From a virus, in the IMG/VR virus record IMGVR_UViG_3300020193_000003: DNA of 64,000 nt, one strand, 5' to 3'. Below, piece by piece: positions 20,639 through 49,552 of the stretch. Numbering within the stretch: the first letter of the stretch is position 1; each line of letters opens with the position of its first letter. The position numbers and the translations under genes were made by a program. The notes beneath the pieces are model-generated. The model worked only from the letters and a program-made list of their open reading frames with translations. It did not search any database and was not told the origin of the DNA.

Positions 20639-22858
20639 ATGGCGTGGAACTCCCGAACCAACAAGAACCTCGGAACTGACAGGACAAAGGCGCTGAATCC
20701 TGGCGCCCCGGTGGCCTACAACCCATCGCAGGTCGGCAGGCCGTACAGGGACTCGTGGGACATCGAGCGCGCATACCGCGAGGGATTCCAGAAGGTCACC
20801 TGGGTGAATCGTTGCATCGACGCGATTTCCGGGAACCAATCTCGCCTACCCATGATCCTGCGGGAGGACAACAACCCATCGGGGAGAGTGGTCAGGAAGA
20901 CGGACAGGAAGATACTGGACATCTTCAACACCAAGGCGAACATGGGGGAGAACTCGTTCGTGTTCCGCTACAGGTTGTCGTCGCAACTGCTCATGTCGTC
21001 GCGCGGGGCCTTCATCGAGAAGATCAGGGGGCGCGACGGCGAGCTGATCGCCCTCCAGTTGCTCCCACCCCAGCACACCGCCCCGATACCCGACCCGAAG
21101 AAGTTCGTGTCCGGCTTCGAGGTGGACATGCGCAACGGAACGAAGGTGACGCTAAAACCGGACGACGTGGTGTGGATCAGGAAGCCGCACCCCCTCGACC
21201 CGTACCTGTCGCTCACGCCAATGGAGTCCGCTGGCATAGCCATAGAGATAGAGAATCTCTCCAAGCTCTACAACAGGAACTTCCTGCTCAACGACGGTAG
21301 GCCGGGCGGCCTGCTGGTCGTCAGGGGCGAGATAGACGACGACGACAAGGACGAGTTGCGCAACCGGTTCAGGGGAAACGTCGCTAGGGCGGGGGCCGTG
21401 ACCGTGCTGTCCTCGGACGAGGGCGTCGACTTCGTGGACACCGGCCAAAGCCCGAGGGACGCAAACTACGTGCAGATGCGCCAGATACAGAAGGAGGAGA
21501 TTCTCGCCGCCTTCGGAGTCCCCGAGTCCGTGATCGGCAACGCCGCCGGCCGGACGTTCGCCAACGCCGCCGAGGAGCACAAGGTGTTCTGGAACGAGAC
21601 GATGCTCCCCCACCTCGAGACGATCGCGAGGGCCCTGGACGAACTGGACGACCAGTACTACATCGACTTCGACGTGACCGACGTGCCGGTCCTCGTTCTC
21701 TACAAGCAGGAGAGGGACAGGTACCTGATGACCGAGTACCAGACGGGTCTCATCAGCGGCAACGAGTACAGGGAGGGCGCAGGGCGCAAAGTGATCGACT
21801 CCGAGCTGATGAACGCCATGCTCGCCAACCCGAACCTAACCCCGATCGGCTACACGAACAAGAAGTTCGTGCAGCAGCAGATGGGCATCCCCGGCATGGG
21901 CGGGGCGCCACCGCCGGCCGGAATGCCTGGCGGACCGATGATTCCCGGCATGGGGCAAATGCCACCGGTTCCGGGCGCCCCGGCAGTCGAGGGGGTCGCA
22001 CCCGCCCCGCAGGAGGGCATGACGGCGGCGCTGCAGGCGGAGGAGGTCGCGGCAGCGCAAGCCGGGCAGATGGCGCAGGCGTCGGCGTTCGGTGACCAGG
22101 TGACGACGAAATCGCTGTGGGACGAATGGGACGAGAAGGCCGAGAACTCACTCGACAGGTGGACCGAGATACTGGACTCGTCCCTTGAGCGTTTCGTGGA
22201 GCGCCAGCAGAGGGTGATACTCGAGAAAGCCGCCGGCTCCAAATCGAGGAAGTCGCTGGAGGCGGGGAGCCTTGACTACGAGAGCATCTTCGACCAGAGG
22301 ATATGGGATAAGCAGCTGGCGGAGGACATGCGCCCGATCCTCAGCGGGATAATGAACGACGCCGCGACGCTCGTCTCCCAGGAGGTCGGAATGCAGGCCG
22401 AGATAGACGAGAAGGAGGCGGCGGAGCACCTAAAGGAACAGATCGAGAGATTCCAGCAGATGAACGCCACCACCGCCAAGGAAATAGAGGGTGCCGTGCT
22501 GATATCGCTCTCCCTCGGCGACGGCGAGGACAAGATGGGGATGCTGAAGGCCGCCCTGCTGGCGATATTCGTCAACCTGCTGTCCAAGCGGAAGAGGAGG
22601 ACGGCGGAGCACGAGTCCCACACCGCCTACAACGCCGGGGCGTTCTACGCAGGTCGCTCGGTCGGCGCAGCCACGAAAACCTGGGTATCGGAAAAAGACG
22701 CGAAGGTCAGGCCCGAGCACGCCGCCATGCACGGCGAGACGGTGCCGATTTACGAGCCGTTCGTCTTCGGCGGAAACTCCATCAGGTACCCGGGTGATCC
22801 GATGGCGGCGATCAACTTGACGATAAATTGCCGGTGCAAAGTGAGGTTCGGGTTCTGA
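20639..22858 (+). CDS. HK97-family portal protein fused to C-terminal MuF (minor head) domain
   Basis: Portal motifs (WVNRCIDAISG, FLLNDGRPGGLL, ILAAFGVPESVIG, NEYRE), a Pro/Gly/Met linker, then MuF KTWVS..DAKVRPEH..MHG...YPGDP...INCRC. Confidence 0.92.
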   Translation: MAWNSRTNKNLGTDRTKALNPGAPVAYNPSQVGRPYRDSWDIERAYREGFQKVTWVNRCIDAISGNQSRLPMILREDNNPSGRVVRKTDRKILDIFNTKANMGENSFVFRYRLSSQLLMSSRGAFIEKIRGRDGELIALQLLPPQHTAPIPDPKKFVSGFEVDMRNGTKVTLKPDDVVWIRKPHPLDPYLSLTPMESAGIAIEIENLSKLYNRNFLLNDGRPGGLLVVRGEIDDDDKDELRNRFRGNVARAGAVTVLSSDEGVDFVDTGQSPRDANYVQMRQIQKEEILAAFGVPESVIGNAAGRTFANAAEEHKVFWNETMLPHLETIARALDELDDQYYIDFDVTDVPVLVLYKQERDRYLMTEYQTGLISGNEYREGAGRKVIDSELMNAMLANPNLTPIGYTNKKFVQQQMGIPGMGGAPPPAGMPGGPMIPGMGQMPPVPGAPAVEGVAPAPQEGMTAALQAEEVAAAQAGQMAQASAFGDQVTTKSLWDEWDEKAENSLDRWTEILDSSLERFVERQQRVILEKAAGSKSRKSLEAGSLDYESIFDQRIWDKQLAEDMRPILSGIMNDAATLVSQEVGMQAEIDEKEAAEHLKEQIERFQQMNATTAKEIEGAVLISLSLGDGEDKMGMLKAALLAIFVNLLSKRKRRTAEHESHTAYNAGAFYAGRSVGAATKTWVSEKDAKVRPEHAAMHGETVPIYEPFVFGGNSIRYPGDPMAAINLTINCRCKVRFGF

Positions 22859-22944: not shown

Positions 22945-25900
22945 ATGACCAACCAGCAAACCTCCGACGATCTGGACTACCTCTACAAGTCTCTCAACGG
23001 TCAGATAAACGTCGATGAGGCGCAGGGCATAGTCGAGGCGTTCGTCGCCGGCGTCGGCAACAAGGACGCCGTGGGTGACATCTGTCTGCCGGGGTGCTTT
23101 ACCTCGTCCCTCAAGCGCAGGAAGCCTCGCGTCGTCTGGGGCCACGACTGGAACTCCCCGATCGGCAAGGTGCTCGAGATCTACGAGGTCGGGCCCAACG
23201 ACCCGCGCCTGCCGGCAAAGATGCGCAAGGCGGGCATAGGTGGCCTCTACGCAAGGGTGCAGTTCAACCTCAAGGCGGAGAAGGGCAGGGAGGCTTTCGC
23301 CAACGTGTCGTTCTTCGGCATGGAGCAGGAGTGGTCCATCGGGTACAAGACCCTGGACGCGGTGTTCGACCCGGTGCAGACCGCCAACCTCCTGAAGGAA
23401 GTGGAGCTCTACGAGGTGTCGCCGGTCTTGCACGGAGCGAACCAGCTGACGGGGACGATATCCATCAAGGCGGACGAGGCCGAAACGCAGACCAAGGAGG
23501 GGCAGGAAAAGGCGGGCAAGCCCGTCTTGCGCGACCCCAAGGGCGGACTCACGGCGGCCGGTCGGGCCCACTTCAAGCGCACCGAGGGCGCAAATCTGAA
23601 ACCGGGCGTGATGGGCGCGGCCGACACGCCGGAGAAAATGCGCAGGAAGGGTTCCTTCCTCACCCGCTTCTTCACCAATCCGAGCGGTCCGATGAAGAAG
23701 CCGAACGGCAAGCCCTCGAGGCTTGCCCTTTCGGCCGCGGCGTGGGGCGAGCCGGTGCCGCAGAACGCGTCCGACGCATCCGCGTTGGCGGCGAAGGGTC
23801 GTCGCCTGCTCGAGAGGTACGAGAACTCGAAGAAGAACAAGAAGAAGGACGACGCAGACTCGGTGGAGAACAAGAACTATGTCGCGGCCATCTACTCCGC
23901 CACGAGCGCGCAGCAGAACGAGACGTTCGGCAGGGCATCCGAGCTGACCAGGGCGTTGGCCGCGAGGTTCGGCGGCCCCGTGAGACTGGTGACGGCCGAC
24001 AACGACATAGCGGTGTTCGAGATGGGCGCTGGCGCGTCGGTGGAGACGATGAGGGTCGCGTACCACTACGACGGCGACGAGTTCATGTTCGGCACGGCTC
24101 AGCAGGTGAAGCCCGAGACCGTCTACATCCCGATCAACCAGACGACATCCGGCCAGACGGTCGGCGGGGTCACGACGGGAATAACCCCGAACGTCGGGCA
24201 CCACGCAGGCCACGTCGGTCACGAGGGACACTGCTGTCCTTCCTGCGGAAACGGCGGCAACTGCGACGCATCGGTGGCGCTCACGCGGGGCGAGAGTCCG
24301 AGGATCGCCTTCATGAAACTGAAGTCGCTCGGCGACCAGCTCAACTTTGAGGTCGTGCCGGTCAACGGAGGTTTCCTCCTGAAGGGGTTCGGGTTCCTTT
24401 CCGTCGAGGCGCAGAACTTCGTCGTCAACAAGATAGAGCAGGGAATGAGCCGGAAGTTCGTGAACCCGACGGGGATGGCCATGCGCAGGGGTCTCGGCGT
24501 TCCGAACATAGGTGGTGCCGTGCGCGGTTTCAACGTCGACATGAACCCGTTCACCGCGAGGGACGCCGACCTGGACAAGCTGGTGCTCGAGGGCAACCCG
24601 CTCGTCAACATGGGCCGCGGAGTGCCGGACCCGACGCCGTTCGGGATCCCGGATGGGCCGCGCTTCGGTGATCCGAACATTCCGAGGGTTTCCGACAGAA
24701 TGAATCAAAGACGCCCGCTGATGATGCCGGCGGTGCCCGAGCCGACCGAGGTCCCGGAACCAGCCAAGGAACCAAAGCCGGTGACGGAACCGTCGCCGTT
24801 CGTGCCCAAGCCGAACAGGCCCCCGACCCCAGTTCCGCAACCGGAACCGGAGACGGAGCCGGTCGTGCCCGTTCCCGTGCCCGAGCCGGAGAGAGAGCCG
24901 GTCCCGGTGCGTCCGCAACCAATCAGGCCGACGGTGCCCGTGCGCCCCCTCGTTCCGACTGGCAGGAGGCGTATTCCAAAGAGGTTGGCGGAGGACTTGG
25001 CGCGAGCAGATTCGTTCGACCGCCCGAGCAGGCAGACGAGGCAGCGTCGCCTCAGGGACCAGGGAATCGACGAAATGCGGAGACTGATGCTCCTCGACGG
25101 ACCGGAAGCTGGAATGAGCAACCAGGACTCTCGCCCATTCGTCGGGCGGACGGACATCGAGTCCCGGGAACGGGAATTCTACGAATTGATGCTGGACGAA
25201 CGAAGGGCCGACGACGCACGCACGACTGGCGACACGAGCGTTCTGCGTCCCCGAATACTCGACGATATTTTGGAATATCTCGGAGACGAGAACGAAGACG
25301 ATCCGGATTACGTCCCGTCTGCCGATGAGATCGCCTCTTTGGCGCAGGAATTGGCAGAGGAGGCAGTCGAAAAATTCATAAACGAGGATTATTACGTTGG
25401 CGGCTCGTCCAGCAACCCTGTGTACAGGGGAAGGAACAACAGGGACCTGTGGCCCAGGCGCGACGAAATCTTCAGGAAATTCAGCGGAGGCGACGGGGAA
25501 GCCGGAATGAGCAGAGGCGGAGGCGGCCCCGACGAATTGGCCGACAGATTCCGTCAGGCTCGAGAGGAGAGAGAGCAGCCCGGCAGCAGAGGTCTTGACG
25601 ACGATACGTCGGCAATGTTTAGACAGGCTGAGGATTCTTTGCGCGGAAGTTTCCGTCCGAAGACCAACGAAGTTGATAGGTACGAGTACAGCGACCGAGA
25701 CAACATCAATGCCATGCGGTCGCAGGCCGAAATAATGAGGACGGACTACAACGACGAAGAAGCCGCCCAACTCTTTGAGCAGGCCGCGGACATCCTTGAA
25801 GATCGACTCGCAATGCCCAAGGACGGCGAAATCGTAGACGACGGTACCGAAGTGGAGCGCGAGCTGCTTGAGGCGGAGCGGATTGGGCTTGCGAACTTGT

Positions 25901-28900
25901 CGGCACGACGCGAGAAGATGCGGGATTCCGGGATGTCTCCGGATTATTCGGTCAGATCCCCGAGCTGGCGCGGTCAGGGTGAATTCTGGCTTGACACCTC
26001 GACGGGGAGAATCTTTTACAGGGACTCCACTGACTTCGAGGATGGGGACGGTTTTGACGGGGAATTCGTGGACATAGCGGGGGTGCAGTCGCAAGACGCC
26101 GATTGGATCCGCGAGAGTCTGCTCGCCAATTGGGACTCAATAGGTTTCAACGCCCGGGGCGACTTCGTCTACAGGGGCGTCGACTTCGGGCAGGCGATGG
26201 ATCCCAACGACCCGCCACCGCCGCTTGACAATCGCGGGGAGTTGATACCGAACCAGGAAGTGGTCATATTCAGCGCGGAGCAAATCGCCTCCAGGCCCAG
26301 GACCAGGGACGACGACATCGTCGACGGGGAGATCGTCGACGGGGATGCCGGAATGGCCGGTCCGAACAGGAACAGACGCCGTGGACGCGCCGTGAGAATC
26401 GATTCCGAAGAAACGCTCGAGGAAGTTTTCAGGAGAAGAAGGAACGGGGAAGACATCTCGGACATGATGGAGGACATTGACCTGCCGAATCCGGGAGACC
26501 GTGCCATCACGGACCCACCCCCGGGTGCGGACGCCGGAATGGCCGGTCGTGCCAGGACCAGGGAGGAGAACGCGGACCTGGGGAGAAGGATCTGGTTGGC
26601 AAGGACCCACGACAAGCTGTCGTTGGACGAGGCCGGCCGCCGCTTCAGGACGTCCAGGCAGAGGGCCAGGCAGCTTGAGCTACTCCATCACAAGTACCTG
26701 CGCAACCTTGGTCAGTACCACGCAAACAGGCTCGCACGGGCGATGGTCGACGACCCGATGACCGGTCTCACCGACGCCGAGGCGGATCTGCTCAGGCGAC
26801 GTCTCGACGGCGAATTGCTCGAGGAGGCGGCTGAGCGACTGAGGACGGACAGGTTCGCCATCAGGCGCATGGAGCAGCTCGCCCTCGCCAAGCTGAGGAA
26901 CAGGATGATCGATGATGGTCCGTCGGGTGCGATGGCCCCCAGTCGTGGAGGCAGGGCGGTGGACGCCGCCCGCCCAAAAGCACCAGGGGCCGAAAGGCCC
27001 GGAAGCCGAAGAAGAAGAAACGCAGTTGATCCGAGTTTCATAGAGATCCTCGACTCGCTGAAGGAGTCGGGCGAGGACGGCCTGACCAACGCGCAGAGAG
27101 TGCGACTGGCGGCCCTGATGCGATTCCGTCGTGTGATCAGCAACAAGATAGACCAGTTGATGGTCGGCGGGTCGCGTCGTCGCCGCCTGTCCGCCGTCGC
27201 CCCGGAGGTCGACCAGCTCAACAAGTCCATGCGCGGCCCGTTCTCTTCGCTGGCCGAGGCCGCGAAGATAACCACGGGCAGTCCGAGGGATTTTGTCTCC
27301 TCCGCCATCAAGGTTGCGAACGGTGAGCAGGATCCGCTCGACATTGACGGACCGATAAACGTCCAGGTATTCGAGGCATTGCGGGCCACGAACGACGATT
27401 TCGCCGCTGTCGCCAGGAGCCTGGGCATGGACGAGGAGGTCGTTCGCCTGCGAGCCGCGGCCCACACGTTGAGGTTGCTCGCCTCGGCGATGCCAGTCAG
27501 GATGGGGGTGCACAGGCGCCTGGAGAGCAGCGGTGACGCTCTGACGTCGATTGAGCGTTACATCGTTAGGGCGTGGCTGAACGGAGCATCGGACCTTGAC
27601 ATTGCCGAGAGGATGGGAGACGGATTCGACGCGGCGCGCGTCGGCGCCACGAAGGTGACGGCGCTCACGAAGCTTCGGGTAGACGTGAACTCACCGGAGA
27701 TGCGCAGCAGGGTGGTCGACGGGAGGATCTTCTACGACGAGTTCGGTCTGTTCGTCGAGCTGACCGACGACGCCGGGGTCACTACCTACAACAGGATCGG
27801 CGACGGGCCGATGAGCATGATGGACGACGACGCATCCGGGGGTATGTCGGCCCCCAAGCGCAGGGTCGTGTTTGCGGACTTCGGCGACGGGGGCAGGGAA
27901 TACGTGGTCACGAGGACAGTCCAGAGGGACAGGGCGAACCCGAGCATGGAGTCAGTGATGATGATGCCGGTAAGGGGCGACGACCAGGCGACGGTGTCTA
28001 CGCTCATCGGCAGGCAGCTGTTGGGCGACGATCGCGGGGCGAACCTCGAGTTCCCGGCGATTCTTTTGAAATCGGACGGAAGGATCACTGGCGTGGCCGA
28101 CCTCTCCGGCAACGCGGTTCGCTTCTACGGGTCGCGCGTCATCAACGGATCCACCCCTCGCGTCGCCGAGAGGGTTGACGCGATAAGGGCCAACGACTCG
28201 GCGGCAAGGACGAAGATGGACCAGGACGTCGAGGGCGCCGAGAGGAGGCTGAGGGGTCTCATGAGGGCGCTGGACCACCTGATTAGCACGGGCGACTGGA
28301 TCGGAGGCGATGCGAACGTCACCGGGAGGGTCCCCGAATACGCGACCATGATGAGGTACGGACTCGACTCCGACGACGACGGGACGCCGATCACTCCGCG
28401 CAACAGGACCAAGGAGCAGTTTGAGCTGGACGAGGCGGAGTTCTTCCTGTCCAGGTACCCGAACGCTTCCGATGACAGGGTGGAGCAGCACGTCCAGCAA
28501 GCCACGTCGGACAGACTCGCCCAGGTGAGCAGGAAGGTCGATATCGCAAAGAAAGAGCTCGACAGGCTCCAGCACGTCCGGGACTCCAAGGAGGTCAGGC
28601 GCTCCCAGAACGTCGTTGACCTCGAGACGCTTGACGACGAGACGGCGAGGATGCTCGCCGACGAAACCAGATTCCTTGCGTCCATGTCCGGGCAGGATTA
28701 CGACGCCGCCGGCGTGTCGAAGGGCGCTGACGGTTTCGCTTACGTGGTCCACAAGGGACCGGACAGGCTCTCGGGCGGCGTGCTTGACCCTCGCATGTCG
28801 GCGGGCGTCGCGGGCCGCGCCGGGTCGGTGGCCGGGCAGGGCGACACGAGGGGGGCGAACAGGACCTACGTAGCGAGGTTCCTGCAGTCTGCGGAGGCGA

Positions 28901-31900
28901 AGTCCGACATGGTCAGGCACTCGTCCGACCTCGCCGCGAGGATCGCCCGAGGCGAGGCGGTCGTCACCGCACACCCGTCGATACGTGGGGCGTTGAGGGC
29001 GCAATCCCAGCTCCTGTCGAGGGCATTCGGCGAAGGCGGAGTGCTGAACATGGAGAACTTCGACGAGGCGCGCGTCGCCGCGATCGTCGCGGATGTCAAC
29101 AGGTTCGTCGACGCCCAGAAACGCGACCTCCAGCGCTACCAGAAGATAAGGGATTCGTTGACGAAGTTCGGCGGGAGGGACATGGATCAAATGCTGTCCG
29201 CCGAGTCGGACGCCACGCGTGCGGTCGGTTCCCTTAACTTCTACGGAAGGTACGCCGATTTTGACCTGCCCCGCGACATCGTCAGCTTCTCGCCGGGGTT
29301 CACGGACGGGCTCACGAGAAGGTGGACCCCCGTGGACGAAACGATGCTCGACCGGTGGGAGTTGACGGGCTCGCTGCGCGGCGGGGCGTTCTTGGCGGCG
29401 GGCAGGCTGGACGCGGAGATAGTCAGGGGCGGGCTGCTCGGACCGAGCGGCGAGTCGCAGATAATAGCCCCACTCAAGCCCCTGATCGGAATTTCGACGC
29501 CGGTCAGGATCACGGACGACGTTGCGCCGAGCGACCCGAAGTTCCTGGTGCAGAGCCTCGGCCCGGCCCTGATGGCTAGGGCCATAAAGATGCACAAGCG
29601 CGACGGGTTCGTGGACATTGAGACCGTCCTGACGGACCCGGACTTGGCACCGCAGGGTTACGTCGCGCGAACCGGGGACGCCGAGGCCGGCATGGCCGCG
29701 CTGGAACCGCGCAGGCCGATCCTTGACGAGCGCGGAAGGCTCGACCCGGTTTTGACGCGCGACGAAGCATACCTGGACGACAGGGAGGAGAGGGGTCTGC
29801 CAGATGGACCGATGCAGAGACTCCTCGTCCCGCAGACTCCGTCCACGTTCATCGAGGCCCCTCCTGGTGACCTCACGCCCGAGACGAGGAGGGCTCCGTG
29901 GGCGATCGGGTACACGAGTTCGGAGGCGGACATCGCCATTGGACTGGACGAGGATTACCCGGAACGACTGGTTCACGTCGTGGCACCCTCGGCGTTGCCG
30001 CCAGACAACGCGAAATTCCCCGTGAGCGAGTCGGGCCCGCATCTGATGCTCGACCGGGAACCGCTGGACTTCCTGGTTCACGTGTTGAACGACATCAACC
30101 GCATGACGGTGGAGGAGAGGGAAGCCTCGGAGAGATCGCTCTCGGACAGGGGCTTCGAGATCGAAAGATCGGAGTTCGACCCCCCGGACGATTTCACCCC
30201 GAGAGAACGTCACCCGACCTACCTGGTCGTCGACATCAGGGGCGAGCCGCAACTTCAGGGTCCCACCGGAACCGGGACCACGAGAATCATCAGGGTCAGG
30301 GAAATCCTGAGGTTCAGACTGTCAAGCCAGGCCGACGAATCCCAGCCCGGCGGAGGACCGTTCTGGAGGCGAATCGACCCCGAGGCGGTCGCGAGAGGGG
30401 AACCTGGGAGAACCACGACCGAAAGCTTGGGGTACATGGACTTCGTGATAGACGTCGACCCAACCTACGACGGAGACCTCCTTGACGGCGAGAGAGAGGT
30501 GAGGATAAAACCGGAGAGCATCATCGGGAGAATAGTCTCCGCCGAGGAGTTGTCCGTCAGCTCCCATGTGACGAGGCAGATCTACCAAGGGGACGGCGTT
30601 CGCTTCATGAGGTACCCGCGCCCCTACGGTCGCTCCGGCGGCGACGCAGAGGCAGGGATGGCACTCGCTCCCCGTACGGCCGATCTGGTCGCAAGGACGG
30701 AGAAGTACTTCCCGTCGGACGACAGGAACGACTGGCTGATCCCAGAGTCCGTCATGCCGGACAGGGAACAGGCGGAGCTCCTCGGCCTGCTCCGCGACGC
30801 GCTCGGCGGCAAGGGGCTGACGCTGGGAGGAGAGCAGAGGTGGCGGATGCTCCTGCTCAAGGCTGAGTCCCTCCGTCGCGTGCAAAGCCTGAGGGGCGAG
30901 CTGCCGCACGAAAGGGACGAGATCGGCGTCTCGATGTACGACACGTTCGCGGCCGACACCGACACGGGATACGGGCAGCTCATTCCGTTCGTGGAACCAG
31001 GGACGACGACGCACATTCGTTACGACAAGAGCGGGAACCCAGTCGAGTACATCCCGGTCAGGATCGGCAGGAGCATCGCCGACGCCGCAACGTTCGAGTA
31101 CCACCCCGCGTCTCAGGTCAAGTACGCACTCATTCTCTCTGGCAGGCAGCTTAGGACCTGGAACCACCCCGAGGGAACTGCTCCGGGGGTTTCGCGGCGA
31201 GTAGCGAGCTGGGACGACGAGGGAGTCGAGCTCGACGTCCTCAGCGAGGAGATCCGCTTCCAGGCCTCGCGCACGAGGCAGATGGACGAACTTCTCGGCT
31301 TCACCGGCGACTCTCCGCAGAAAATAATCTTCGCTCTCCGCCGAGCGGCCAGCGACAAATCACCCAGACTCAGGGACAGGTTCGTGTACGACCCCTACGG
31401 ATACGTCGTTCTGTCCGACGCGCCGTGGAGGGAGGAGGACAGCGTCGTCGCCCTGCGCAGGTCCGAGAACTTCGCCGACCTGCAGAGACTGATCGCCGGC
31501 ATAAAGAAGGACGAAAAGTCGGTCAAGGTGACGCAGGTCGTCGGCTACAAGCCCGGCTCAAAGACGAGACCGTCGCTGGTCGACCGGGTCATCCGCTCGC
31601 CCAGGGTGGTCAGCGGCGTGGTGGACGAGATCACGGGGGAGTTCGTGCTCGACGGCAACGGAACCCCGCACGTCGTCGGGTACCTGCCCGACGGATCACC
31701 GATAGCCGTCGAGATCTCCGACTTGGTATACGACCGCGTCTCGCCGAGGCGAGCCGACGACGAATTCTCGCCGTCGAGGAACCGCGCTCCAGGCGGGGAT
31801 GCGGAAGCGGGGATGTCCTCCCCAACGAAGTCCAACCTCTACAACTACATAAGAATGCGGCTGAGGGGCGATGGCGACGACCAGGACAGGGATTACATCG

Positions 31901-34900
31901 AGATATCCAACCTGCCTGGCACCGCGAGGGCGAGGGACGGCGGGGCGTTCGACACGAGCCCGGCGGGAATAATAAGGAGGATCGTCGCCGCGGTCCGCAA
32001 GAGGGACAGGGACGCCGGAGGGAAGGTGGGCCTCGTCTTCTCCTACCCGAGCTCGGTCAAGGACAAGCCGGGCGTGAAGGAGGACAGGAACAGGACCATC
32101 TTCAACCCACTTGTCGTGTACGGCGAGTACGACAAAACCATCGGCGAGACCCGGATCCTCGTGACGGACGACCGAGGCATAACGAGGCTCGTCCCGATGT
32201 CGCAAGTTGACCTGTCCAAGCTCGCAACCGACGAGGAGAGACTCGGGGACCACTCCAGCAATTACGACGTGCAGGTCGGGGACCTCAACGCATACGTGGT
32301 CGGCGACGAATACGTGGACGGGAAGAAGCAGAGGAGAGTGTTCAGCACCGACAGGATGAAGCCAGCGAAACGCGACGACAACGAGAGCACGAAACCGGGA
32401 CCGGCGACCAGTCAACCCACCGCTGGCACGACAAGCCGGGCGGCGGGCAGCCCGGACACGCGCGAGATCCCAATCGTTGCCAGCGACGCCGACGACGACA
32501 ATCTCGCGGGCCAGATCGAAACCAGACCCGACGAGTTCGACGCAGTGACGCTCGATCCCCGGCCCGAGTACGTTGCACCCGGCGCCGGGGTCGACGGGGC
32601 GAAACCCACGGCGAGGGAGGTCGCGTGGGGCTTGGCGCGCAACGACCCCAAGGCCATCAAAGCGGGTCGGGCGGACGAAAAAAGGCTGTGGGAGCGAATA
32701 AAGCTGGGCACCCAGAAATGGATCGAAACCTGGAAAGCCAGGGCAGTTACAGACGAAGAGACCGGCGAGGAGGTGATAGACCCGAAAACGGGCCATGTCG
32801 CCTTGAGAACGCCGTTCAGGAAGGCGTGGCGACCCTGGGGAAATCCGATCGGCCCCGACGGCAGGGAACTTCCAACAGGCATCAAGGCCGAGATGGACAG
32901 AATCAGGAGCTGGCCTGAGTTCATGAACTTCATAAAGCGCAAGAAGCTCGTCTTCGTCGACTGGGAGACGACCGGCATTCCGATAGGCGAGATTGACACG
33001 GGTAGGCCCCTGCAAGTGGGCATCATCGTCGTCGAAAACGGGGATTTCGCAAACCCCAAACGACTCGAGGTGTGGATAGATCCCGCCGGCACGCCGCTGT
33101 CGGATTGGACGAAGAAGAATGTGAAGAAGAACGGCATCCCCGTCGGTCAAGCGCTAGCGACGACACCGGGCGAATTCGTGCCCGTCGACGAGGCGCGGCG
33201 CCGAATAGCGGAGGTCGTGGGGGCCGACGCGATAATCATCTCCCACAACCTCAGGAATTTCGACATGTCGCTGTGGAAGGAGGTGATGGGCGAATACCCC
33301 ATCGCCGGCTGGATGGACACGCTCGCCATCGCCAACTGGGTGTTCCACATCGACTCCTACAGGTTCAAGCAGATTCAAGCACACCTGAATGACTCTCCGT
33401 CTGCGAAGTCCGGTAAGAAAAACTACGACAGGGACATGAACCCGTTCGTCAACTGGATCTCAAAGGCCATCACGATCCGCGGGAGACATCCCCTATTCCC
33501 GCGTGCCAGGTCGTGGGGGGGAAGAGGTGGCAAACCAGACGCCCTCGACAGGATAGGACGCAGGGCCACCGGTCCGCTGAAGTACATACCAACGTTGAAA
33601 AAGGAGGGTCTCGGACAGTGGTACCCGAGGTTCTTTTCGTCCAACGCGCTCGAGGCGCTCGCCCGGTACTTCGGCGTGCCCGCAGAGGCGGGGCACGACG
33701 CAGTGGCGGACATAAACGTTACCGCCAAGGTGTTCCTGGAAATGGTGGCGCTCGCGGAGCGGTGGGGAAGGGCCGATCAGATGTTTGACCCAGAACTCGT
33801 GCGGTGGGCGCAGGCCCAGGTCGACGAGCAGTACGCGGCCGACCTCGAAGCTTGGAGAAGGCAGAGCGGCATCACGGAGCGACCACGCGAGAGATTGTTC
33901 GACCCGGAGGCGCCGACAGAGCCCAGCGGCGGAGACGCGCCAGGGGAACCGCGACCAGGGGGCGGTGGTGGTGGGGCGTCCACGCCCCCAGGCGGGGGAG
34001 ACACCCGACCACCGGGAGGCGGAGGGATGCCACCCACGGACGACGGAGACCCGAACAGGAGGCTTTTGTACCAGACGGCCTATGGGGTCCGCGTATACGA
34101 GACGCCCACGGGCATCCACTACGAATTCAAGTCGGTCTCACCCAAGGAGGGGCCGAGCTCCGCGACCGTCGCTTTCGCCACGTTCAACGAGGTGCGGGAG
34201 GGAGGATTCGCGATCGAGTTCAACTACGGCAGGAATCCGGACGGGTCGACGGCGGCGTACAGAATCATCTCAATCGAGCTGACGACCAAGTCAGGAATCA
34301 GCGGGTCGGAGGCAGCCGGGCCAAACGACTTGGTGGTCCACGGAATTGACCTCGCGGACGGGAAACTCAAGAAGTTTGATTTCGCCCAGATCAACGCAGG
34401 CGGCAACACCCCCCCGAGACCCAGCGAGCTGACGGAGCTTCCCGCGAACATATACGGTGTACGCACGGCGGCCGGCCCTGGGGGCAAACCGACGACGCCC
34501 GCCCAGTACGCCGACCACATGAGGAGGAGGGCCTTCGGGAGAAGGAGGTCGCCGGACGGACCGATCGCCGGCATGGCGGGCCTGACCAACAGGGACGGAG
34601 CGACGGACTCATCCTCCTACTGGGTCGCAACCACCGACGACGTGGCCATGGCGGACATGTCCGATGTCGAGCTATCCGAGCGACTCGCGGCGCACAGGCT
34701 CAGGTTCGAGAACGCGTTCCACTCGGGGCCGTCCTCAAACGCCGCCATGTCAAGGGCGCTCGATTCGGTCGCCGCCGCCAACAGGGTGATGAGAATCAGG
34801 TCAAACGACAGCACGGACCAAAACGGATTCTCCGTGTCGATGGGCAGGATGGGGTACAAGCTGACCGGCGAATTCAGGGCCCCACCGGGGGTCATGGACG

Positions 34901-37900
34901 GAAGCTACGAGCTCCCCGGTGAGTTCGTCGCCGACAGGGCCGAACTGGCCAGGAACGCCAACCTGTCGCTGATGCTCGACTACTCGGTCGCCAACGGGGA
35001 GATTGCGGAGGCCCTGGAGAGGGTCTCAAGGTTGTCGCGAGTCCCTAGGTCCGAGCTCCTCGGCAGGCTGTCGACGCACGACTACTCGATGTACTCGGAC
35101 GCAATCGCGTCAAGGGCGTTCAGGAACACGTCCGAGATGGTGTCCGATGGCGTCGCCACCCCCTCTTCGCTGGGAATGATAATTGACCCCGCCTCGGATC
35201 CGGCTAGCGCGGCGCGCGCCGTGGACTCGGCGCTGCGCAGGCTGGGGATCAACGCGCTGGACATTAGCAACGGGTTGAGGAGGGGAGGGAGGAACTACGC
35301 GCAAAGCGAGGCGGACGACCTCATCAACCAGTTCAACGAGTCGGTTTCGGACCTGTTCTCCTTCGACCATGACGGTAGGCGTTCCGATCCAGAGTTCAGG
35401 GTCAAGTCCGACGCAATCAAGGACAAGATAAGGGACTTGAGCGACGAGATCAGGAGGAGACACCTGTCTTCGCCGCAAACGGACGCGGAGGCCGGCATGG
35501 GTAACCCGGACCCCGACCTGCGCCGCTTGATGAGCGAGTTCACGCGACTCGCCCCCTCCATGAATTTCGAGGCCGCCACGGACGCAGGGTTTGACGAGGA
35601 TTGGAAGCGTCTCTCCGACCAGATAATCGACGACTTCGTCCGGCGGCCGGGCCGTGGGACGGAGCAGGCGTTCTCCTCGTTCGGCGATGCGCTGAAAGGC
35701 AGGGCGAGCGCTGTCGGTCGGGCTATCGACCGAATAATCGACCCGAGCAAAGCCCCCATCCCGGCAAATTCCCAATTGGGACGCGAGGTGGTCAAGTCCA
35801 CCGCGAAGATCCTCGCACTCATCTACGACCTGAGGTTCGGATCAACGGACATGCTCGGACTTCTGGCTTCCACGCCGGGGGCGGGCCCGGGCTCCGGAGT
35901 CAGCGGGCTGGACGTTACCTACAAAATGATCGATTCCGGCGCCGCCGTGCTGTTCGCCAGGGGCGGCCGAAGGGCGCTGGTTGCGTATCTGGTGGAGGCC
36001 GTGAGCCTCGGTCTGGTGCCTGCCTACAGGGCCATGGGGATTCTCGACAGGCTGTCCCCATCCCCCAGGACCGCGGCCATATCCTCGGGAGCCGAGGCGG
36101 CCATGGGCCGGTCGGGCGGTTCCTCGCCGTTCGGCGACGCCGACGGAATACCGATACTGAGCGGATCAAAGTGGTTCGACTCGCGGCTCCACGCCATGTT
36201 CGGTAGCGCAAATTACGAAAAGATAGCCACTTCGTTCGGGAACCGTTTCAGGACGCTGCCCGACAGGAGCTGGAACTCGCCGACCGACGACGACCTCGTC
36301 GACATCTACCACTACGCCACGATGCTCAACCACGACTCAATGATCGAGGACCTCGTCATAAGGGGCGACAGGGTGGACGCCGTCGACTTCTCCCAGTTTG
36401 ACGTGGCGGACGCGGGACAGACCCCCGTCGGGGTCACCGGGGTGATCGAGAGAGTCGCATCGTTCACGGGTCTACCTGCAGCGCAGGTCCTCGGCTTCGT
36501 TGAGAGAGGGCGCGACGTCGCGCTCGTGCGCCGACTCGCCGCCATGGACCCGGAGTCGAGGATAGAGCATGCGAATGCGATGCGTCGCAGACGCGCTTTC
36601 ATGAGGTTGGTCGAACAGAAGAAGGGCGAGCTGGGCGACGACTTCCCACTCTGGATGGCGGAGGCGTCGATCAGGCGAGACAGGGAGGAGAGTCGGTCCG
36701 GGGTCTTCGGCAACGATTTCGCCGAGCTTATGGACGACGAGACGAATAGGTTCTACGGCGAGACGCCAGCCTCGGCCCTCAAGAACATCTCCCGCTTCCT
36801 CGGGATGGACAAACCCCCCACGAAGATGACGCAGAGCGAACCGCGTCGCGACGGGGAGGCTGGCATGGCTGGCAAGAAACCCTTCATCAGGCAACGCTAC
36901 GACTTCAAGCCGGTCGACGGCGGCTTCGTGATCATAGACACCGACAACAGGAACGCAATTTCAAGCAGGGTTTTCAAGGACAGGAGGGAGGCCCTGCGAG
37001 GGGCCGAACGCATGGACAGGGGAGACAAGACGTTCGACCCGTTCGCCCCCCCGCCGTCGGAGCCAAAGACCGCGACGGAGGTCGTGGCGGAGGACCCGAG
37101 GATGCAGGAGATGTCCGATCCCGGCAGGCGACCGACGCTGTTTGACGACGACGGTGACGCGAATGCGGGGATGTCGAGCACCGGGTTGCCCAGCACGCTG
37201 AGGTTCGTCGCGAGGAACAGCGGGAAGCAACAGGTCAGCATGGACAACGTCCGCTCGGCCATGTCGGAGTACGAATCCGGTCGAGCGTCAATCCCCTTCC
37301 CATCACCCGACGACGCGCCGGTCTCGAGACTGATCGGCGGGTACGCATCCAGCGACTCCGCCCTGCACACCGTCCTCGGAAGGATAGAACAACTGGCGCC
37401 CACCGACGACTCCGCCGCCAAGCAGGAGGAGATGAGGGGTCTCGTACAGAATCTCTCGAAACTCCAGCGGAGGAGGAACTACTTCTACAACCAGCTGATG
37501 GAGAGACTCGACCCGGGTGACCCGGATTTCGAGACGCTTGAGTCTTGGCACTCTCAGAGGGCTGGCATCGCCAGGGAGTCCTCGAGCCGGTTCGGCGTCG
37601 GGAGCCTGCCCGTCTACATACTCCCGAGGGGTGCGGAAACGGACGACGCGCAGGCCGGCGCCAACTCGCCAAGCTACATGCGCGCCTCCGGCGACGTGTC
37701 CTCGCTAGAGGTCGTCAGCAACGACGCGGCGGACAGGATCGGATCGTTGATCGGCTCGTCCGACTACTCGGTACGGGAAAGGTACGACGAAGTAATCAGG
37801 TCGGTGCAGCGCGACGTCGCGCGAATTTCCCGCATGACTGGGCAATCGATGGTCAAGTTCGGACAGAACTCGGTCAGGATAGGGGCGCAACTGCTGGCCA

Positions 37901-38265
37901 TGGCCGACAGGACGGACGGGAGCGACCGAGAACTGCTCAGGAGGGAGCTGATATCGGCGGGTCTATCGCGGATGCTCTCCGACGGCGGCGTGAGACTCGG
38001 ACTGGCCTACCTCGTCAACGCCGTGGACGTGGGCCTGCTGACGCACTCGCAGGCGAAGGAGATCCTGAGGAGGGAGAGACGGAAGGCGAACAAGCCGAGG
38101 ACGGAAATGACCAAGCCCGAGGGGCTGATGGCGCGCGGCCAGATGTCTCGCCTCGTCTCCGAGCTGATGGGACCCGGCCTGTCGTCGAAGTCGGCCGAGA
38201 CCGCGGCGAGGGGCAAGCGCCTGTCAATGATTACGGAAACGGTGGGGTCGGTCCTTGCCGAATAG
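22945..38265 (+). CDS. Giant polyvalent protein (5106 aa): N-terminal HK97-type prohead protease plus many effector modules
   Basis: aa 1-175 carry protease motifs (D..GDI..PG.F, WGHDWNSPIGK, WSIGY, EVELYEVSPVLHGAN). Then a DUF6321-like domain, sigma70-r4-like HTHs, WYL-like segments and a DEDDh exonuclease; about 15 EAGM-type linkers. Confidence 0.9.
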   Translation: MTNQQTSDDLDYLYKSLNGQINVDEAQGIVEAFVAGVGNKDAVGDICLPGCFTSSLKRRKPRVVWGHDWNSPIGKVLEIYEVGPNDPRLPAKMRKAGIGGLYARVQFNLKAEKGREAFANVSFFGMEQEWSIGYKTLDAVFDPVQTANLLKEVELYEVSPVLHGANQLTGTISIKADEAETQTKEGQEKAGKPVLRDPKGGLTAAGRAHFKRTEGANLKPGVMGAADTPEKMRRKGSFLTRFFTNPSGPMKKPNGKPSRLALSAAAWGEPVPQNASDASALAAKGRRLLERYENSKKNKKKDDADSVENKNYVAAIYSATSAQQNETFGRASELTRALAARFGGPVRLVTADNDIAVFEMGAGASVETMRVAYHYDGDEFMFGTAQQVKPETVYIPINQTTSGQTVGGVTTGITPNVGHHAGHVGHEGHCCPSCGNGGNCDASVALTRGESPRIAFMKLKSLGDQLNFEVVPVNGGFLLKGFGFLSVEAQNFVVNKIEQGMSRKFVNPTGMAMRRGLGVPNIGGAVRGFNVDMNPFTARDADLDKLVLEGNPLVNMGRGVPDPTPFGIPDGPRFGDPNIPRVSDRMNQRRPLMMPAVPEPTEVPEPAKEPKPVTEPSPFVPKPNRPPTPVPQPEPETEPVVPVPVPEPEREPVPVRPQPIRPTVPVRPLVPTGRRRIPKRLAEDLARADSFDRPSRQTRQRRLRDQGIDEMRRLMLLDGPEAGMSNQDSRPFVGRTDIESREREFYELMLDERRADDARTTGDTSVLRPRILDDILEYLGDENEDDPDYVPSADEIASLAQELAEEAVEKFINEDYYVGGSSSNPVYRGRNNRDLWPRRDEIFRKFSGGDGEAGMSRGGGGPDELADRFRQAREEREQPGSRGLDDDTSAMFRQAEDSLRGSFRPKTNEVDRYEYSDRDNINAMRSQAEIMRTDYNDEEAAQLFEQAADILEDRLAMPKDGEIVDDGTEVERELLEAERIGLANLSARREKMRDSGMSPDYSVRSPSWRGQGEFWLDTSTGRIFYRDSTDFEDGDGFDGEFVDIAGVQSQDADWIRESLLANWDSIGFNARGDFVYRGVDFGQAMDPNDPPPPLDNRGELIPNQEVVIFSAEQIASRPRTRDDDIVDGEIVDGDAGMAGPNRNRRRGRAVRIDSEETLEEVFRRRRNGEDISDMMEDIDLPNPGDRAITDPPPGADAGMAGRARTREENADLGRRIWLARTHDKLSLDEAGRRFRTSRQRARQLELLHHKYLRNLGQYHANRLARAMVDDPMTGLTDAEADLLRRRLDGELLEEAAERLRTDRFAIRRMEQLALAKLRNRMIDDGPSGAMAPSRGGRAVDAARPKAPGAERPGSRRRRNAVDPSFIEILDSLKESGEDGLTNAQRVRLAALMRFRRVISNKIDQLMVGGSRRRRLSAVAPEVDQLNKSMRGPFSSLAEAAKITTGSPRDFVSSAIKVANGEQDPLDIDGPINVQVFEALRATNDDFAAVARSLGMDEEVVRLRAAAHTLRLLASAMPVRMGVHRRLESSGDALTSIERYIVRAWLNGASDLDIAERMGDGFDAARVGATKVTALTKLRVDVNSPEMRSRVVDGRIFYDEFGLFVELTDDAGVTTYNRIGDGPMSMMDDDASGGMSAPKRRVVFADFGDGGREYVVTRTVQRDRANPSMESVMMMPVRGDDQATVSTLIGRQLLGDDRGANLEFPAILLKSDGRITGVADLSGNAVRFYGSRVINGSTPRVAERVDAIRANDSAARTKMDQDVEGAERRLRGLMRALDHLISTGDWIGGDANVTGRVPEYATMMRYGLDSDDDGTPITPRNRTKEQFELDEAEFFLSRYPNASDDRVEQHVQQATSDRLAQVSRKVDIAKKELDRLQHVRDSKEVRRSQNVVDLETLDDETARMLADETRFLASMSGQDYDAAGVSKGADGFAYVVHKGPDRLSGGVLDPRMSAGVAGRAGSVAGQGDTRGANRTYVARFLQSAEAKSDMVRHSSDLAARIARGEAVVTAHPSIRGALRAQSQLLSRAFGEGGVLNMENFDEARVAAIVADVNRFVDAQKRDLQRYQKIRDSLTKFGGRDMDQMLSAESDATRAVGSLNFYGRYADFDLPRDIVSFSPGFTDGLTRRWTPVDETMLDRWELTGSLRGGAFLAAGRLDAEIVRGGLLGPSGESQIIAPLKPLIGISTPVRITDDVAPSDPKFLVQSLGPALMARAIKMHKRDGFVDIETVLTDPDLAPQGYVARTGDAEAGMAALEPRRPILDERGRLDPVLTRDEAYLDDREERGLPDGPMQRLLVPQTPSTFIEAPPGDLTPETRRAPWAIGYTSSEADIAIGLDEDYPERLVHVVAPSALPPDNAKFPVSESGPHLMLDREPLDFLVHVLNDINRMTVEEREASERSLSDRGFEIERSEFDPPDDFTPRERHPTYLVVDIRGEPQLQGPTGTGTTRIIRVREILRFRLSSQADESQPGGGPFWRRIDPEAVARGEPGRTTTESLGYMDFVIDVDPTYDGDLLDGEREVRIKPESIIGRIVSAEELSVSSHVTRQIYQGDGVRFMRYPRPYGRSGGDAEAGMALAPRTADLVARTEKYFPSDDRNDWLIPESVMPDREQAELLGLLRDALGGKGLTLGGEQRWRMLLLKAESLRRVQSLRGELPHERDEIGVSMYDTFAADTDTGYGQLIPFVEPGTTTHIRYDKSGNPVEYIPVRIGRSIADAATFEYHPASQVKYALILSGRQLRTWNHPEGTAPGVSRRVASWDDEGVELDVLSEEIRFQASRTRQMDELLGFTGDSPQKIIFALRRAASDKSPRLRDRFVYDPYGYVVLSDAPWREEDSVVALRRSENFADLQRLIAGIKKDEKSVKVTQVVGYKPGSKTRPSLVDRVIRSPRVVSGVVDEITGEFVLDGNGTPHVVGYLPDGSPIAVEISDLVYDRVSPRRADDEFSPSRNRAPGGDAEAGMSSPTKSNLYNYIRMRLRGDGDDQDRDYIEISNLPGTARARDGGAFDTSPAGIIRRIVAAVRKRDRDAGGKVGLVFSYPSSVKDKPGVKEDRNRTIFNPLVVYGEYDKTIGETRILVTDDRGITRLVPMSQVDLSKLATDEERLGDHSSNYDVQVGDLNAYVVGDEYVDGKKQRRVFSTDRMKPAKRDDNESTKPGPATSQPTAGTTSRAAGSPDTREIPIVASDADDDNLAGQIETRPDEFDAVTLDPRPEYVAPGAGVDGAKPTAREVAWGLARNDPKAIKAGRADEKRLWERIKLGTQKWIETWKARAVTDEETGEEVIDPKTGHVALRTPFRKAWRPWGNPIGPDGRELPTGIKAEMDRIRSWPEFMNFIKRKKLVFVDWETTGIPIGEIDTGRPLQVGIIVVENGDFANPKRLEVWIDPAGTPLSDWTKKNVKKNGIPVGQALATTPGEFVPVDEARRRIAEVVGADAIIISHNLRNFDMSLWKEVMGEYPIAGWMDTLAIANWVFHIDSYRFKQIQAHLNDSPSAKSGKKNYDRDMNPFVNWISKAITIRGRHPLFPRARSWGGRGGKPDALDRIGRRATGPLKYIPTLKKEGLGQWYPRFFSSNALEALARYFGVPAEAGHDAVADINVTAKVFLEMVALAERWGRADQMFDPELVRWAQAQVDEQYAADLEAWRRQSGITERPRERLFDPEAPTEPSGGDAPGEPRPGGGGGGASTPPGGGDTRPPGGGGMPPTDDGDPNRRLLYQTAYGVRVYETPTGIHYEFKSVSPKEGPSSATVAFATFNEVREGGFAIEFNYGRNPDGSTAAYRIISIELTTKSGISGSEAAGPNDLVVHGIDLADGKLKKFDFAQINAGGNTPPRPSELTELPANIYGVRTAAGPGGKPTTPAQYADHMRRRAFGRRRSPDGPIAGMAGLTNRDGATDSSSYWVATTDDVAMADMSDVELSERLAAHRLRFENAFHSGPSSNAAMSRALDSVAAANRVMRIRSNDSTDQNGFSVSMGRMGYKLTGEFRAPPGVMDGSYELPGEFVADRAELARNANLSLMLDYSVANGEIAEALERVSRLSRVPRSELLGRLSTHDYSMYSDAIASRAFRNTSEMVSDGVATPSSLGMIIDPASDPASAARAVDSALRRLGINALDISNGLRRGGRNYAQSEADDLINQFNESVSDLFSFDHDGRRSDPEFRVKSDAIKDKIRDLSDEIRRRHLSSPQTDAEAGMGNPDPDLRRLMSEFTRLAPSMNFEAATDAGFDEDWKRLSDQIIDDFVRRPGRGTEQAFSSFGDALKGRASAVGRAIDRIIDPSKAPIPANSQLGREVVKSTAKILALIYDLRFGSTDMLGLLASTPGAGPGSGVSGLDVTYKMIDSGAAVLFARGGRRALVAYLVEAVSLGLVPAYRAMGILDRLSPSPRTAAISSGAEAAMGRSGGSSPFGDADGIPILSGSKWFDSRLHAMFGSANYEKIATSFGNRFRTLPDRSWNSPTDDDLVDIYHYATMLNHDSMIEDLVIRGDRVDAVDFSQFDVADAGQTPVGVTGVIERVASFTGLPAAQVLGFVERGRDVALVRRLAAMDPESRIEHANAMRRRRAFMRLVEQKKGELGDDFPLWMAEASIRRDREESRSGVFGNDFAELMDDETNRFYGETPASALKNISRFLGMDKPPTKMTQSEPRRDGEAGMAGKKPFIRQRYDFKPVDGGFVIIDTDNRNAISSRVFKDRREALRGAERMDRGDKTFDPFAPPPSEPKTATEVVAEDPRMQEMSDPGRRPTLFDDDGDANAGMSSTGLPSTLRFVARNSGKQQVSMDNVRSAMSEYESGRASIPFPSPDDAPVSRLIGGYASSDSALHTVLGRIEQLAPTDDSAAKQEEMRGLVQNLSKLQRRRNYFYNQLMERLDPGDPDFETLESWHSQRAGIARESSSRFGVGSLPVYILPRGAETDDAQAGANSPSYMRASGDVSSLEVVSNDAADRIGSLIGSSDYSVRERYDEVIRSVQRDVARISRMTGQSMVKFGQNSVRIGAQLLAMADRTDGSDRELLRRELISAGLSRMLSDGGVRLGLAYLVNAVDVGLLTHSQAKEILRRERRKANKPRTEMTKPEGLMARGQMSRLVSELMGPGLSSKSAETAARGKRLSMITETVGSVLAE

Positions 38266-38313
38266 CTACTATTGCAGTCATACAACAAACAGTCTTCTAC
38301 AATTGGAGGGACC

Positions 38314-40128: not shown

Positions 40129-40332
40129 ATGAACGGTAGACCAAGCGGCGAGTACACCCGCGGGAACCGTGTTATGGGTTATGATAAACCTACACAAAAT
40201 AACGCAGTCAAATTGAAATATCACTGCATTGCGACGGGCGAGAAACGCCAGTTTCCATGCGGCAGTTGCGTCAACCACAAGGGTTGCCTAGCGACGACGA
40301 TGCAATACAAGGAGCGAAAACATGGAACCTGA
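40129..40332 (+). CDS. Small Cys-rich (zinc-ribbon-like) protein
   Basis: HCIATGEKRQFPCGSCVNHKGC; the true start may be the internal Met. Confidence 0.55.
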   Translation: MNGRPSGEYTRGNRVMGYDKPTQNNAVKLKYHCIATGEKRQFPCGSCVNHKGCLATTMQYKERKHGT

Positions 40333-49484: not shown

Positions 49485-49552
49485 GAAATATACGTCTATA
49501 ATTGTTTGATGATTGTCAAATCCCGTCGCCGGGAATAGAGGATAAAGGGCAG

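Follow-up and report, generated by a model that had tools for sequence, protein, structure and literature searches.

A tagged, linker-punctuated 5106-residue phage protein headed by an S78 protease: a candidate virion polyvalent polyprotein

The DNA considered here is a stretch of 64,000 nt from a virus (IMG/VR record IMGVR_UViG_3300020193_000003), referred to below as the window, and it belongs to an uncultured phage of about 140 kb whose host group is probably Actinobacteria. It carries an open reading frame (ORF) of 5106 amino acids (aa) behind the portal gene, which begins with an HK97-type prohead protease of the Peptidase_S78 family and continues through a short tag into a long series of modules separated by a repeated linker peptide. 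We read the product of this ORF as a virion polyvalent polyprotein that would be made, packaged, cut by the S78 protease and delivered to the host, and a probability of roughly 0.55 is given to this reading. The giant chains of this phage would probably be loaded into the capsid first and cut apart there.

The frame opens with ATG 86 nt downstream of the portal gene (22858 is the last position of the portal gene and 22945 the first of the ORF) and runs on uninterrupted, as described in an earlier note on this DNA, which had seen an S78 protease after the portal that lacked a stop and read through into a long extension. No clear Shine-Dalgarno (SD) sequence precedes its start. A protein identical to the ORF product is recorded on four contigs, the longest of which is 142 kb. 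G001, the closest IMG/VR record at about 95% nucleotide identity, has an ORF of 5467 aa at the same place, which differs by in-frame indels only, and codon-wise comparison of the two gave a ratio of nonsynonymous to synonymous substitution rates (dN/dS) of 0.33 overall and below 0.8 in all 300-codon bins. Large S78 fusions, proposed in the earlier note as a subject for a survey, were found in at least 16 further relatives of 2918-5467 aa, which have the same architecture and the same N-terminus (S78 and DUF6321). On this evidence, the open frame is judged to be genuine and due neither to chance nor to misassembly. The probability that it is an assembly artefact or contains a missed stop, with the protease being an ordinary short gene, is practically negligible. 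No point in favor of an artefact was found, whereas the four identical records, the ORFs of 2770-5467 aa in independent assemblies and the purifying selection along the whole ORF, with all indels in frame, speak against it. The conserved run of Lys that follows DUF6321 was also considered as a site of programmed frameshifting, and this was rejected; the codons there are AAG AAG AAC AAG AAG AAG, and there is no slippery A-run. Promoter-like and terminator-like sites within the ORF showed no excess over shuffled sequences.

The head of the ORF product matched the Pfam family PF04586 (Peptidase_S78), for which the earlier note had suggested a hidden Markov model (HMM) search, with 44.2 bits against a cut-off of 21 bits (E 2.9e-11; residues 25-179), covering 151 of 165 profile positions, and it also matched phrog_80 (E 1e-27). 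His65 and Ser114 of HK97 gp4, which we take to be its catalytic residues, align with His67 and Ser131 of the ORF product, and both residues are invariant in 35 relatives. In an AlphaFold2 (AF2) model of residues 1-723, the mean predicted local distance difference test score (pLDDT) was 60 and the protease domain was modeled confidently (pLDDT 65-86); the top Foldseek matches of the model were herpesvirus assemblins and T4 gp21, with weak E values of 0.03-0.8. Sequence searches of the PDB with the protease part and with the 4383-aa cargo gave nothing useful. With a score above the family threshold, the catalytic dyad and a head-module position after the portal, the head of the ORF is assigned to Peptidase S78 with its catalytic His and Ser kept, and proteolytic activity is predicted. 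Enzymes of the S78 class work inside procapsids and process head-internal proteins. A Cys-rich insert of 39 aa (GPCWPGYKQVGMKKGK…NCVP) occurs between the protease domain and DUF6321 in G001 (after window residue 186, L010), P0005, P0006 and P0014; its presence varies, and it is sometimes duplicated.

The repeated peptide D-[G/A]-E-A-G-M-[A/S] punctuates the 5106-aa ORF in 12 clear and two or three weaker copies, which mark off about 15 modules of 62-920 aa each (Table 1). The same linker occurs five times in a second giant ORF of the window (2362 aa; Met positions 43393, 44596, 46036, 46792 and 47272) and four to five times in a third (3531 aa; Met positions 54818, 56282, 57095 and 58181), and no other window ORF of at least 300 aa contained it in any of the six frames. 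The three giant ORFs, 10,999 aa in all, contain exact EAGM 13 times; the expectation was 0.17, and 2000 shuffles gave two at most. Relatives have recurring joints of their own, always with Met, namely SAGM or DAGM, PTASM, DSGAM, DTGRM, GPVG[A/S]M and GMRSR. In G002 (109 kb), 22 DSGAM-type linkers are spread over the protease polyprotein and three further giant ORFs, of which one has 6494 aa, and PSGSM or VSGSM occurs 19 times across four ORFs of G003 (74 kb). The joint of G005 is G-[M/F]-R-S and is found in five ORFs; Met is replaceable by Phe in the G005/P0017 lineage. One and the same junction can carry different linkers by lineage, as the junction before GLTNR reads DGPIAGM/AGLTNR here and SGAM/SGLTNR or SAGM/SGLTNR in relatives (the slash stands behind the Met). 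In the linker DNA, synonymous positions are free to vary and the Ser codons come from both the AGY and the TCN family; selection therefore acts on the peptide and not on an RNA or DNA signal. Because this short peptide is identical at every joint of the giant ORFs and yet different between genomes, it is best explained as the recognition site of an endopeptidase encoded by the genome.

Few of the modules between the linkers resemble known families. Module 5 contains two sigma-70 region-4-like helix-turn-helix (HTH) units, for which the Pfam match (Sigma70_r4, E 1e-4) was below the cut-off and the phrog match (phrog_351, sigma factor) had an E value of 7.6e-5; the same module carries PF04545/PF08281 in relatives. 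Module 10 includes a DEDD exonuclease, and about 10 modules had no family match in Pfam or phrog. Among GenBank phages, residues 296-2952 had no counterpart and the residues beyond them a single weak one, and an ESM Atlas search with module 7 was uninformative. A search for shorter homologues returned only four matches, all on contigs of 2.2-18.5 kb, which are probably fragments of similar polyproteins; the modules are therefore not known as stand-alone genes. In G001, an extra module of 127 aa, beginning with DGPEAGM, is inserted exactly at linker 1. Across 16 relatives, most detected modules were either matched over at least 90% of their length or absent, and partial matches (25-82%) came mainly from distant relatives and concerned modules 3, 10 and 12-15. 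Module 8 (residues 2250-2571) is absent as a unit from P0004-P0007, with the break points at linkers, and module 12 is found at different places in P0004 and P0007. These comparisons of sequence indicate that gain, loss and relocation affect entire modules, with the linkers as the boundaries. Modules 1, 5, 11, 13 and 14 were found in all relatives but P0017, the most distant one, which has only the protease domain in common. The chain is therefore a conserved backbone with variable inserts and not a pure effector array. Thus, the single effector string pictured in the earlier note was not borne out; the cargo is divided by genome-specific linkers into about 15 modules, and five modules make up a conserved backbone.

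The tag lies between the ancestral protease part and linker 1. The window has one copy each in the protease polyprotein, at the very N-terminus of the 2362-aa ORF and near the N-terminus of a 916-aa ORF; G002 has five copies and G003 three, of which one stands in the protease polyprotein and the rest lie N-terminally in large ORFs. When 1.84 billion representative proteins were searched with a profile, only 37 clusters had the tag. The tagged proteins are all large (most of them 850-6391 aa) and carry one copy each, and two short ones are probably fragments. The tag is located at residues 23-330, or at about 530-585 in protease-headed proteins. It had no match in Pfam. The stretch is predicted to be disordered (AF2 pLDDT <50) and is followed by a Pro-rich spacer, a predicted context as expected of a docking motif. 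After the tag, the 2362-aa and 916-aa ORFs have an [I/V]-A-A-M site. In both G002 and G003, a linker-bearing ORF without the tag stands immediately behind a tagged ORF, as is also seen with the 3531-aa ORF of the window.

The origin of the chain was studied by comparing 78 loci that were retained out of 204 relatives in viral contigs; for P0005-P0017, gene contexts came from those members that had an IMG/VR locus. Most locus-complete protease ORFs are short, stop-closed forms of 560-730 aa (S78, a middle region and two small domains), and the next gene behind such a protease is a homologue of the scaffold-like gene at 40322..42181 of the window. Among the 78 loci, the tag was present only where the protease ORF is giant, and in the giant forms it lies just behind the ancestral protease part of about 530 aa. 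With the short forms closed by a stop and the tag of the giants located right after the ancestral part, the simplest account is an in-frame fusion between a protease gene and a giant cargo gene downstream of it that was already tagged. The fusion has been kept in every giant-form genome seen. The block of 40-60 kb has the order portal, protease polyprotein, scaffold-like protein, tagged giant ORFs and major capsid protein (MCP). In G001, G002 and G003, the MCP gene comes only after all giant ORFs (phrog_10, E 9.5e-63 in G002); the block thus lies within the head module, and this placement supports a head-internal location of the giant proteins.

These findings bear on the proposal of the earlier note that the protease, rather than MuF, serves as the packaging carrier. 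A real S78 protease does follow the portal, is fused to about 4400 residues of non-protease modules and stands within the head block. However, the fusion is not required to account for packaging, because the cargo has its own tag and protease-free giant ORFs carry the same tag N-terminally, and a MuF domain is present as well, fused to the portal and carrying nothing. The proposal is thus supported in part, and the case for the protease as the carrier is weakened.

The following course of events is proposed. An ancestral head protease gene of about 530-700 aa (S78, DUF6321 and two small domains) would have been fused to a tagged cargo gene. The chain would be made late, probably in few copies, and would be co-assembled into the procapsid through its protease/scaffold part, its tag, or both; the tag may also load the other giant proteins of the phage. 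Inside the procapsid, a phage endopeptidase would cut at about 14 D-x-E-A-G-M-[A/S] linkers, next to Met, and the S78 domain itself is the favored enzyme. Cutting would free the sigma-region-4-like DNA binders, the DEDD exonuclease and many uncharacterised modules, which would stay in the head and enter the host together with the DNA. Viewed more broadly, a two-part loading grammar that has not been described before can be put forward tentatively, with a chance a little short of even. Each chain would have one tag of about 35 aa and a genome-private pentapeptide code that is cut by a co-evolving phage protease, modules would be pluggable at any linker, and at least a quarter of the genome would represent a reshuffled, injected arsenal. 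A private code might also keep the protease of a co-infecting relative off foreign cargo.

The identity of the cutting enzyme divides the evidence, and the S78 domain is given about an even chance. In its favor, enzymes of its class process head-internal proteins, S78 heads the largest chain, and the scaffold-like protein is rich in Met (7% in its first 330 aa; median 5.4% in the family, 34 loci, against a background of 2.4%), including in genomes without zincins or linkers, which hints at Met-directed cutting by S78. Several points weigh against the proposed pathway. Genomes with unlike linkers (EAGM, DSGAM and PSGSM) have S78 domains that are 62-86% identical, which is awkward if S78 reads the whole motif of 5-6 residues. 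In the N-terminal region of the MCP and in the scaffold-like protein, the linker of the lineage was not found, only loose sites of a small residue and Met. Zincin modules co-occur with the linkers and diverge faster. The 3531-aa ORF gave no tag in tblastn and HMM searches, though it has linkers. A cargo of 560 kDa on each copy of the protease would be a heavy load for the capsid, and cutting, packaging and delivery are all deduced from sequence. A rival explanation keeps the architecture and the packaging and assigns the cutting to a zincin metallopeptidase acting N-terminal to the hydrophobic Met or Phe (between G and M), in the capsid or after ejection; the candidates are the tagged 916-aa protein with HEMGH or the HExxH modules at the ends of other giant ORFs. 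HExxH modules occur in the 2362-, 3531- and 916-aa ORFs, their homologues in G002 and G003 share only 24-39% identity with them, and this divergence parallels that of the linkers. HExxH is also present in the linker-bearing G005 and absent from the structural ORFs of the linker-free G006. Thermolysin-like zincins have a hydrophobic S1' pocket, with which the interchange of Met and Phe is compatible, and the 916-aa zincin bears the same tag as the polyprotein. Zincin metallopeptidases have been proposed as the processing enzymes of polyvalent proteins (PMC5512222). However, the protease polyprotein has no zincin of its own, the linkers are accompanied just as well by giant S78 forms, the zincins may serve as effectors rather than in processing, and the Met-rich scaffold of zincin-free relatives suggests that S78 acts at Met. 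Cutting by a zincin is regarded as less likely than cutting by S78.

Other explanations would do without cutting or without packaging. The giant protein may remain in one piece and work, for instance, as a scaffold of the inner body or for ejection, with the linkers serving as binding sites or hinges for a partner encoded by the genome. The virion RNA polymerase of N4 and several polyvalent proteins are packaged unprocessed (PMC5512222), and the conservation of five modules is expected of a structural role. However, a motif of 5-7 residues that recurs unchanged at more than 20 joints and is each genome's own has the pattern of a protease code, it always places a hydrophobic Met or Phe between small residues, and whole modules turn over at it, so that an uncleaved chain seems improbable. 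The suggestion that the polyprotein is not capsid cargo and is processed in the cytoplasm, which would yield many proteins from one message in a fixed ratio, is decidedly improbable; the HTH and exonuclease modules could work in the infected cell, but the chain is fused to an enzyme that works in procapsids, it is placed between portal and MCP with other tagged giant ORFs, and the common tag suggests common targeting. Very improbable is the idea that the linkers are internal starts (SD plus ATG) of once separate genes, from which the modules are translated separately. Every linker does contain an ATG in frame, and in several EAGM copies GGAGG lies 5-8 nt upstream of it. Yet in many lineages the 15 kb is free of stop codons throughout, the codon evidence given above points to the peptide, the motif differs by genome although the anti-SD is universal, and Met is replaced by Phe in the G005/P0017 lineage; internal starts were rejected on these grounds.

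The closest published concept for a cut and packaged chain is that of the polyvalent proteins of phages and conjugative elements (Iyer, Burroughs, Anand, de Souza and Aravind 2017; PMC5512222), in which many unrelated domains, such as peptidase, DNA-binding and nuclease domains, share one polypeptide in a context of virion genes. Embedded peptidases were proposed to release the domains, which would enter the host with the DNA (PMC5512222). Such proteins have 2-15 or more unrelated domains, and here S78, DUF6321, the sigma-region-4-like HTH, the DEDD exonuclease and about 10 family-less modules were found; the virion context is given by the fusion to a head protease between portal and MCP. The assemblin-like (prohead protease) peptidase is stated to be always C-terminal among polyvalent domains (PMC5512222), whereas S78 is N-terminal here and in all 16 giant relatives. 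The genome-private linker at each joint, a linker common to several giant ORFs and a 35-aa tag are absent from PMC5512222, and the word 'linker' does not occur in its text. The size differs as well: the chain here has about 15 modules in its 5106 aa, the three giant ORFs together amount to about 11,000 aa, and no family is known for most modules. The concept is known, and the regular private linkers, the tag and the N-terminal S78 are not described there. Literature searches found no description of a protease-headed, tagged and linker-punctuated architecture.

In T4, the internal proteins (IPI-III and Alt) have a capsid-targeting sequence that is cut by the prohead protease gp21 (PMC9026906, PMC9958956), and the inner-body and ejection proteins of phiKZ and SPN3US are cut by their own prohead protease (PMC9026906, PMC9958956, PMC5694885, PMC7411985). 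A short N-terminal address peptide, cutting by a head protease at a short consensus and ejection of the products into the host would be the likenesses, and the [I/V]-A-A-M site after the tag resembles T4, where the targeting peptide is cut off. The cargos of T4 and phiKZ, however, are separate genes with their own signals, and their gp21-type (S77) protease cuts after Glu. Here, each chain has one tag, the sites contain Met, and the S78 protease is itself part of the chain; instead of S77 cleavage at (L/I)-x-E, there are an S78 protease and linkers that end in Met. A shared N-terminal peptide exists in the form of the tag, whose targeting role is putative and which one linker-bearing ORF does not have. 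The nearest cultured phages are actinophages (Streptomyces phage Gilgamesh, Gordonia phages GMA6 and DalanDe, and Brevibacterium phage Cantare). HK97 gp4 and other S78 proteases, including those of Gilgamesh and DalanDe, have the same protease family and gene neighborhood, and Gilgamesh and DalanDe represent an actinophage-like lineage. Gilgamesh gene 52 (37883-39808, annotated 'hydrolase') is S78 fused to NUDIX, and this phage also has a portal-MuF fusion; its gene 48 (gp48), located after that portal-MuF fusion, is a 4624-aa ORF separate from the protease, with no Pfam match and no repeated linker. DalanDe has a 1633-aa 'capsid maturation protease' with S78 in the C-terminal part. Unlike the window, none of Gilgamesh, DalanDe and HK97 has the tag or the linker code. 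The polymorphic MuF toxins of temperate phages (Jamet et al. 2017; PMC5576092) consist of a MuF carrier and a single toxin domain, with an immunity gene, and are alike in that a head-internal domain carries a variable C-terminal payload. In the window, by contrast, MuF ends the portal with nothing behind it, no MuF occurs in the polyprotein, and the payload stands behind the protease and tag. RNA-virus polyproteins also have one ORF, an embedded protease and short conserved cleavage sites between mature products; the analogy is operational only, as their proteases and domains are unrelated and this is a tailed phage with double-stranded DNA.

If the proposed pathway is true, a tailed phage delivers dozens of proteins with its DNA by means of one targeting signal and one cleavage code, in a modular and easily evolved system comparable to RNA-virus polyproteins. 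Capsid addressing outside T4 and phiKZ, the specificity of prohead proteases and the host effects of roughly 30 uncharacterised modules would then become testable. The tag and linkers could also be tools to load foreign proteins into capsids, and the giant genes, in which most modules have no known family, represent a reservoir of unexplored early-infection functions.

Table 1. Features of the window discussed in the text (the slash in a linker stands behind its Met; Met numbers refer to the 5106-aa product)
Feature	Position	Strand	Description or evidence
Portal with C-terminal MuF	20639..22858	+	739 aa; Pfam Phage_portal E 8.6e-51; Phage_Mu_F res 640-735, E 8.6e-11
Protease-headed polyprotein ORF	22945..38265	+	5106 aa, ATG start, one uninterrupted frame; ORF listing, translation
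Peptidase_S78 (HK97-type prohead protease) domain	23017..23481	+	res 25-179; Pfam, HK97 gp4 alignment, AF2, Foldseek
DUF6321 domain	23530..23745	+	res 196-267; Pfam E 4.2e-27; AF2 confident helices
Tag NPxTARDADxDxxVLEGxPxxNxGRGxPDPTP	24529..24678	+	~35-50 aa, res 529-578; tblastn, HMM, alignment
Pro/Glu-rich disordered spacer	24712..24984	+	res ~590-680, between tag and linker 1; translation; AF2 pLDDT <50
Linker 1, DGPEAGM/S	25099..25119	+	Met 724; motif scan
Linker 2, GDGEAGM/S	25492..25512	+	Met 855; motif scan
Linker 3, DGDAGM/A	26338..26358	+	Met 1137; motif scan
Linker 4, GADAGM/A	26524..26544	+	Met 1199; motif scan
Module 5, two sigma-70 region-4-like HTH units	26539..26931	+	res 1199-1329; Pfam, phrog, module matrix
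Weaker linker, DDGPSGAM/A	26917..26937	+	Met 1330; motif scan
Weaker linker, DDDASGGM/S	27829..27849	+	Met 1634; motif scan
Linker, GDAEAGM/A	29677..29697	+	Met 2250, module 8 boundary; motif scan
Linker, GDAEAGM/A	30643..30663	+	Met 2572; motif scan
Linker, GDAEAGM/S	31798..31818	+	Met 2957; motif scan
DEDD (DnaQ/RNase T-like) exonuclease	32923..33735	+	within module 10; phrog_192 E 8.4e-14; Pfam RNase_T E 8e-6
Linker, DGPIAGM/AGLTNR	34558..34578	+	Met 3877; motif scan
Linker, TDAEAGM/G	35482..35502	+	Met 4185; motif scan
Linker, GAEAAM/G	36088..36108	+	Met 4387; motif scan
Linker, RDGEAGM/A	36850..36870	+	Met 4641; motif scan
Linker, GDANAGM/S	37156..37176	+	Met 4743; motif scan
Acidic Met-rich scaffold-like protein	40322..42181	+	619 aa; homologues, composition
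Second giant ORF	42193..49281	+	2362 aa; N-terminal tag 42259-42414; 5 EAGM-type linkers; C-terminal HExxH
Third giant ORF	49502..60097	+	3531 aa; 4-5 linkers; two HExxH modules
916-aa protein	60407..63157	+	N-terminal tag 60536-60691; zincin motif HEMGH at nt 61757; tblastn, HMM, motif

Among the neighboring genes, TerL lies upstream of the portal gene on the minus strand, and the nearest cultured match of the portal is the 'portal and MuF-like fusion protein' of Streptomyces phage Gilgamesh. Between the polyprotein and the scaffold-like gene, positions 38314-40116 (+) encode a very basic low-complexity protein of about 600 aa with tandem repeats of about 45 aa (…RPAGRPVDRLPGAGGPSGNLNPGQRGARPDTSNQRAEDARNQGK…). 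It has a strong ribosome-binding site, GGAGGG, and is not conserved at that position in G002. The scaffold-like protein has EEMMP-type repeats, with Met reaching 18.7% in a 150-aa stretch, as well as a PepSY-like middle part, and ends in two copies of DGSYPI…DL.NAI…GRA. In the 2362-aa ORF, the region 46078-46683 matched the uncharacterised family phrog_4776 strongly (E 4e-57), and HTH or sigma-region-4-like matches were found at about 45300-45800. Tagged and linker-punctuated ORFs stand just before the MCP gene in G002 (6494 aa, 69391-88872) and G003 (5441 aa, 57157-73479), and G001 has one of about 5250 aa that extends from L117:12893 onward into L118.

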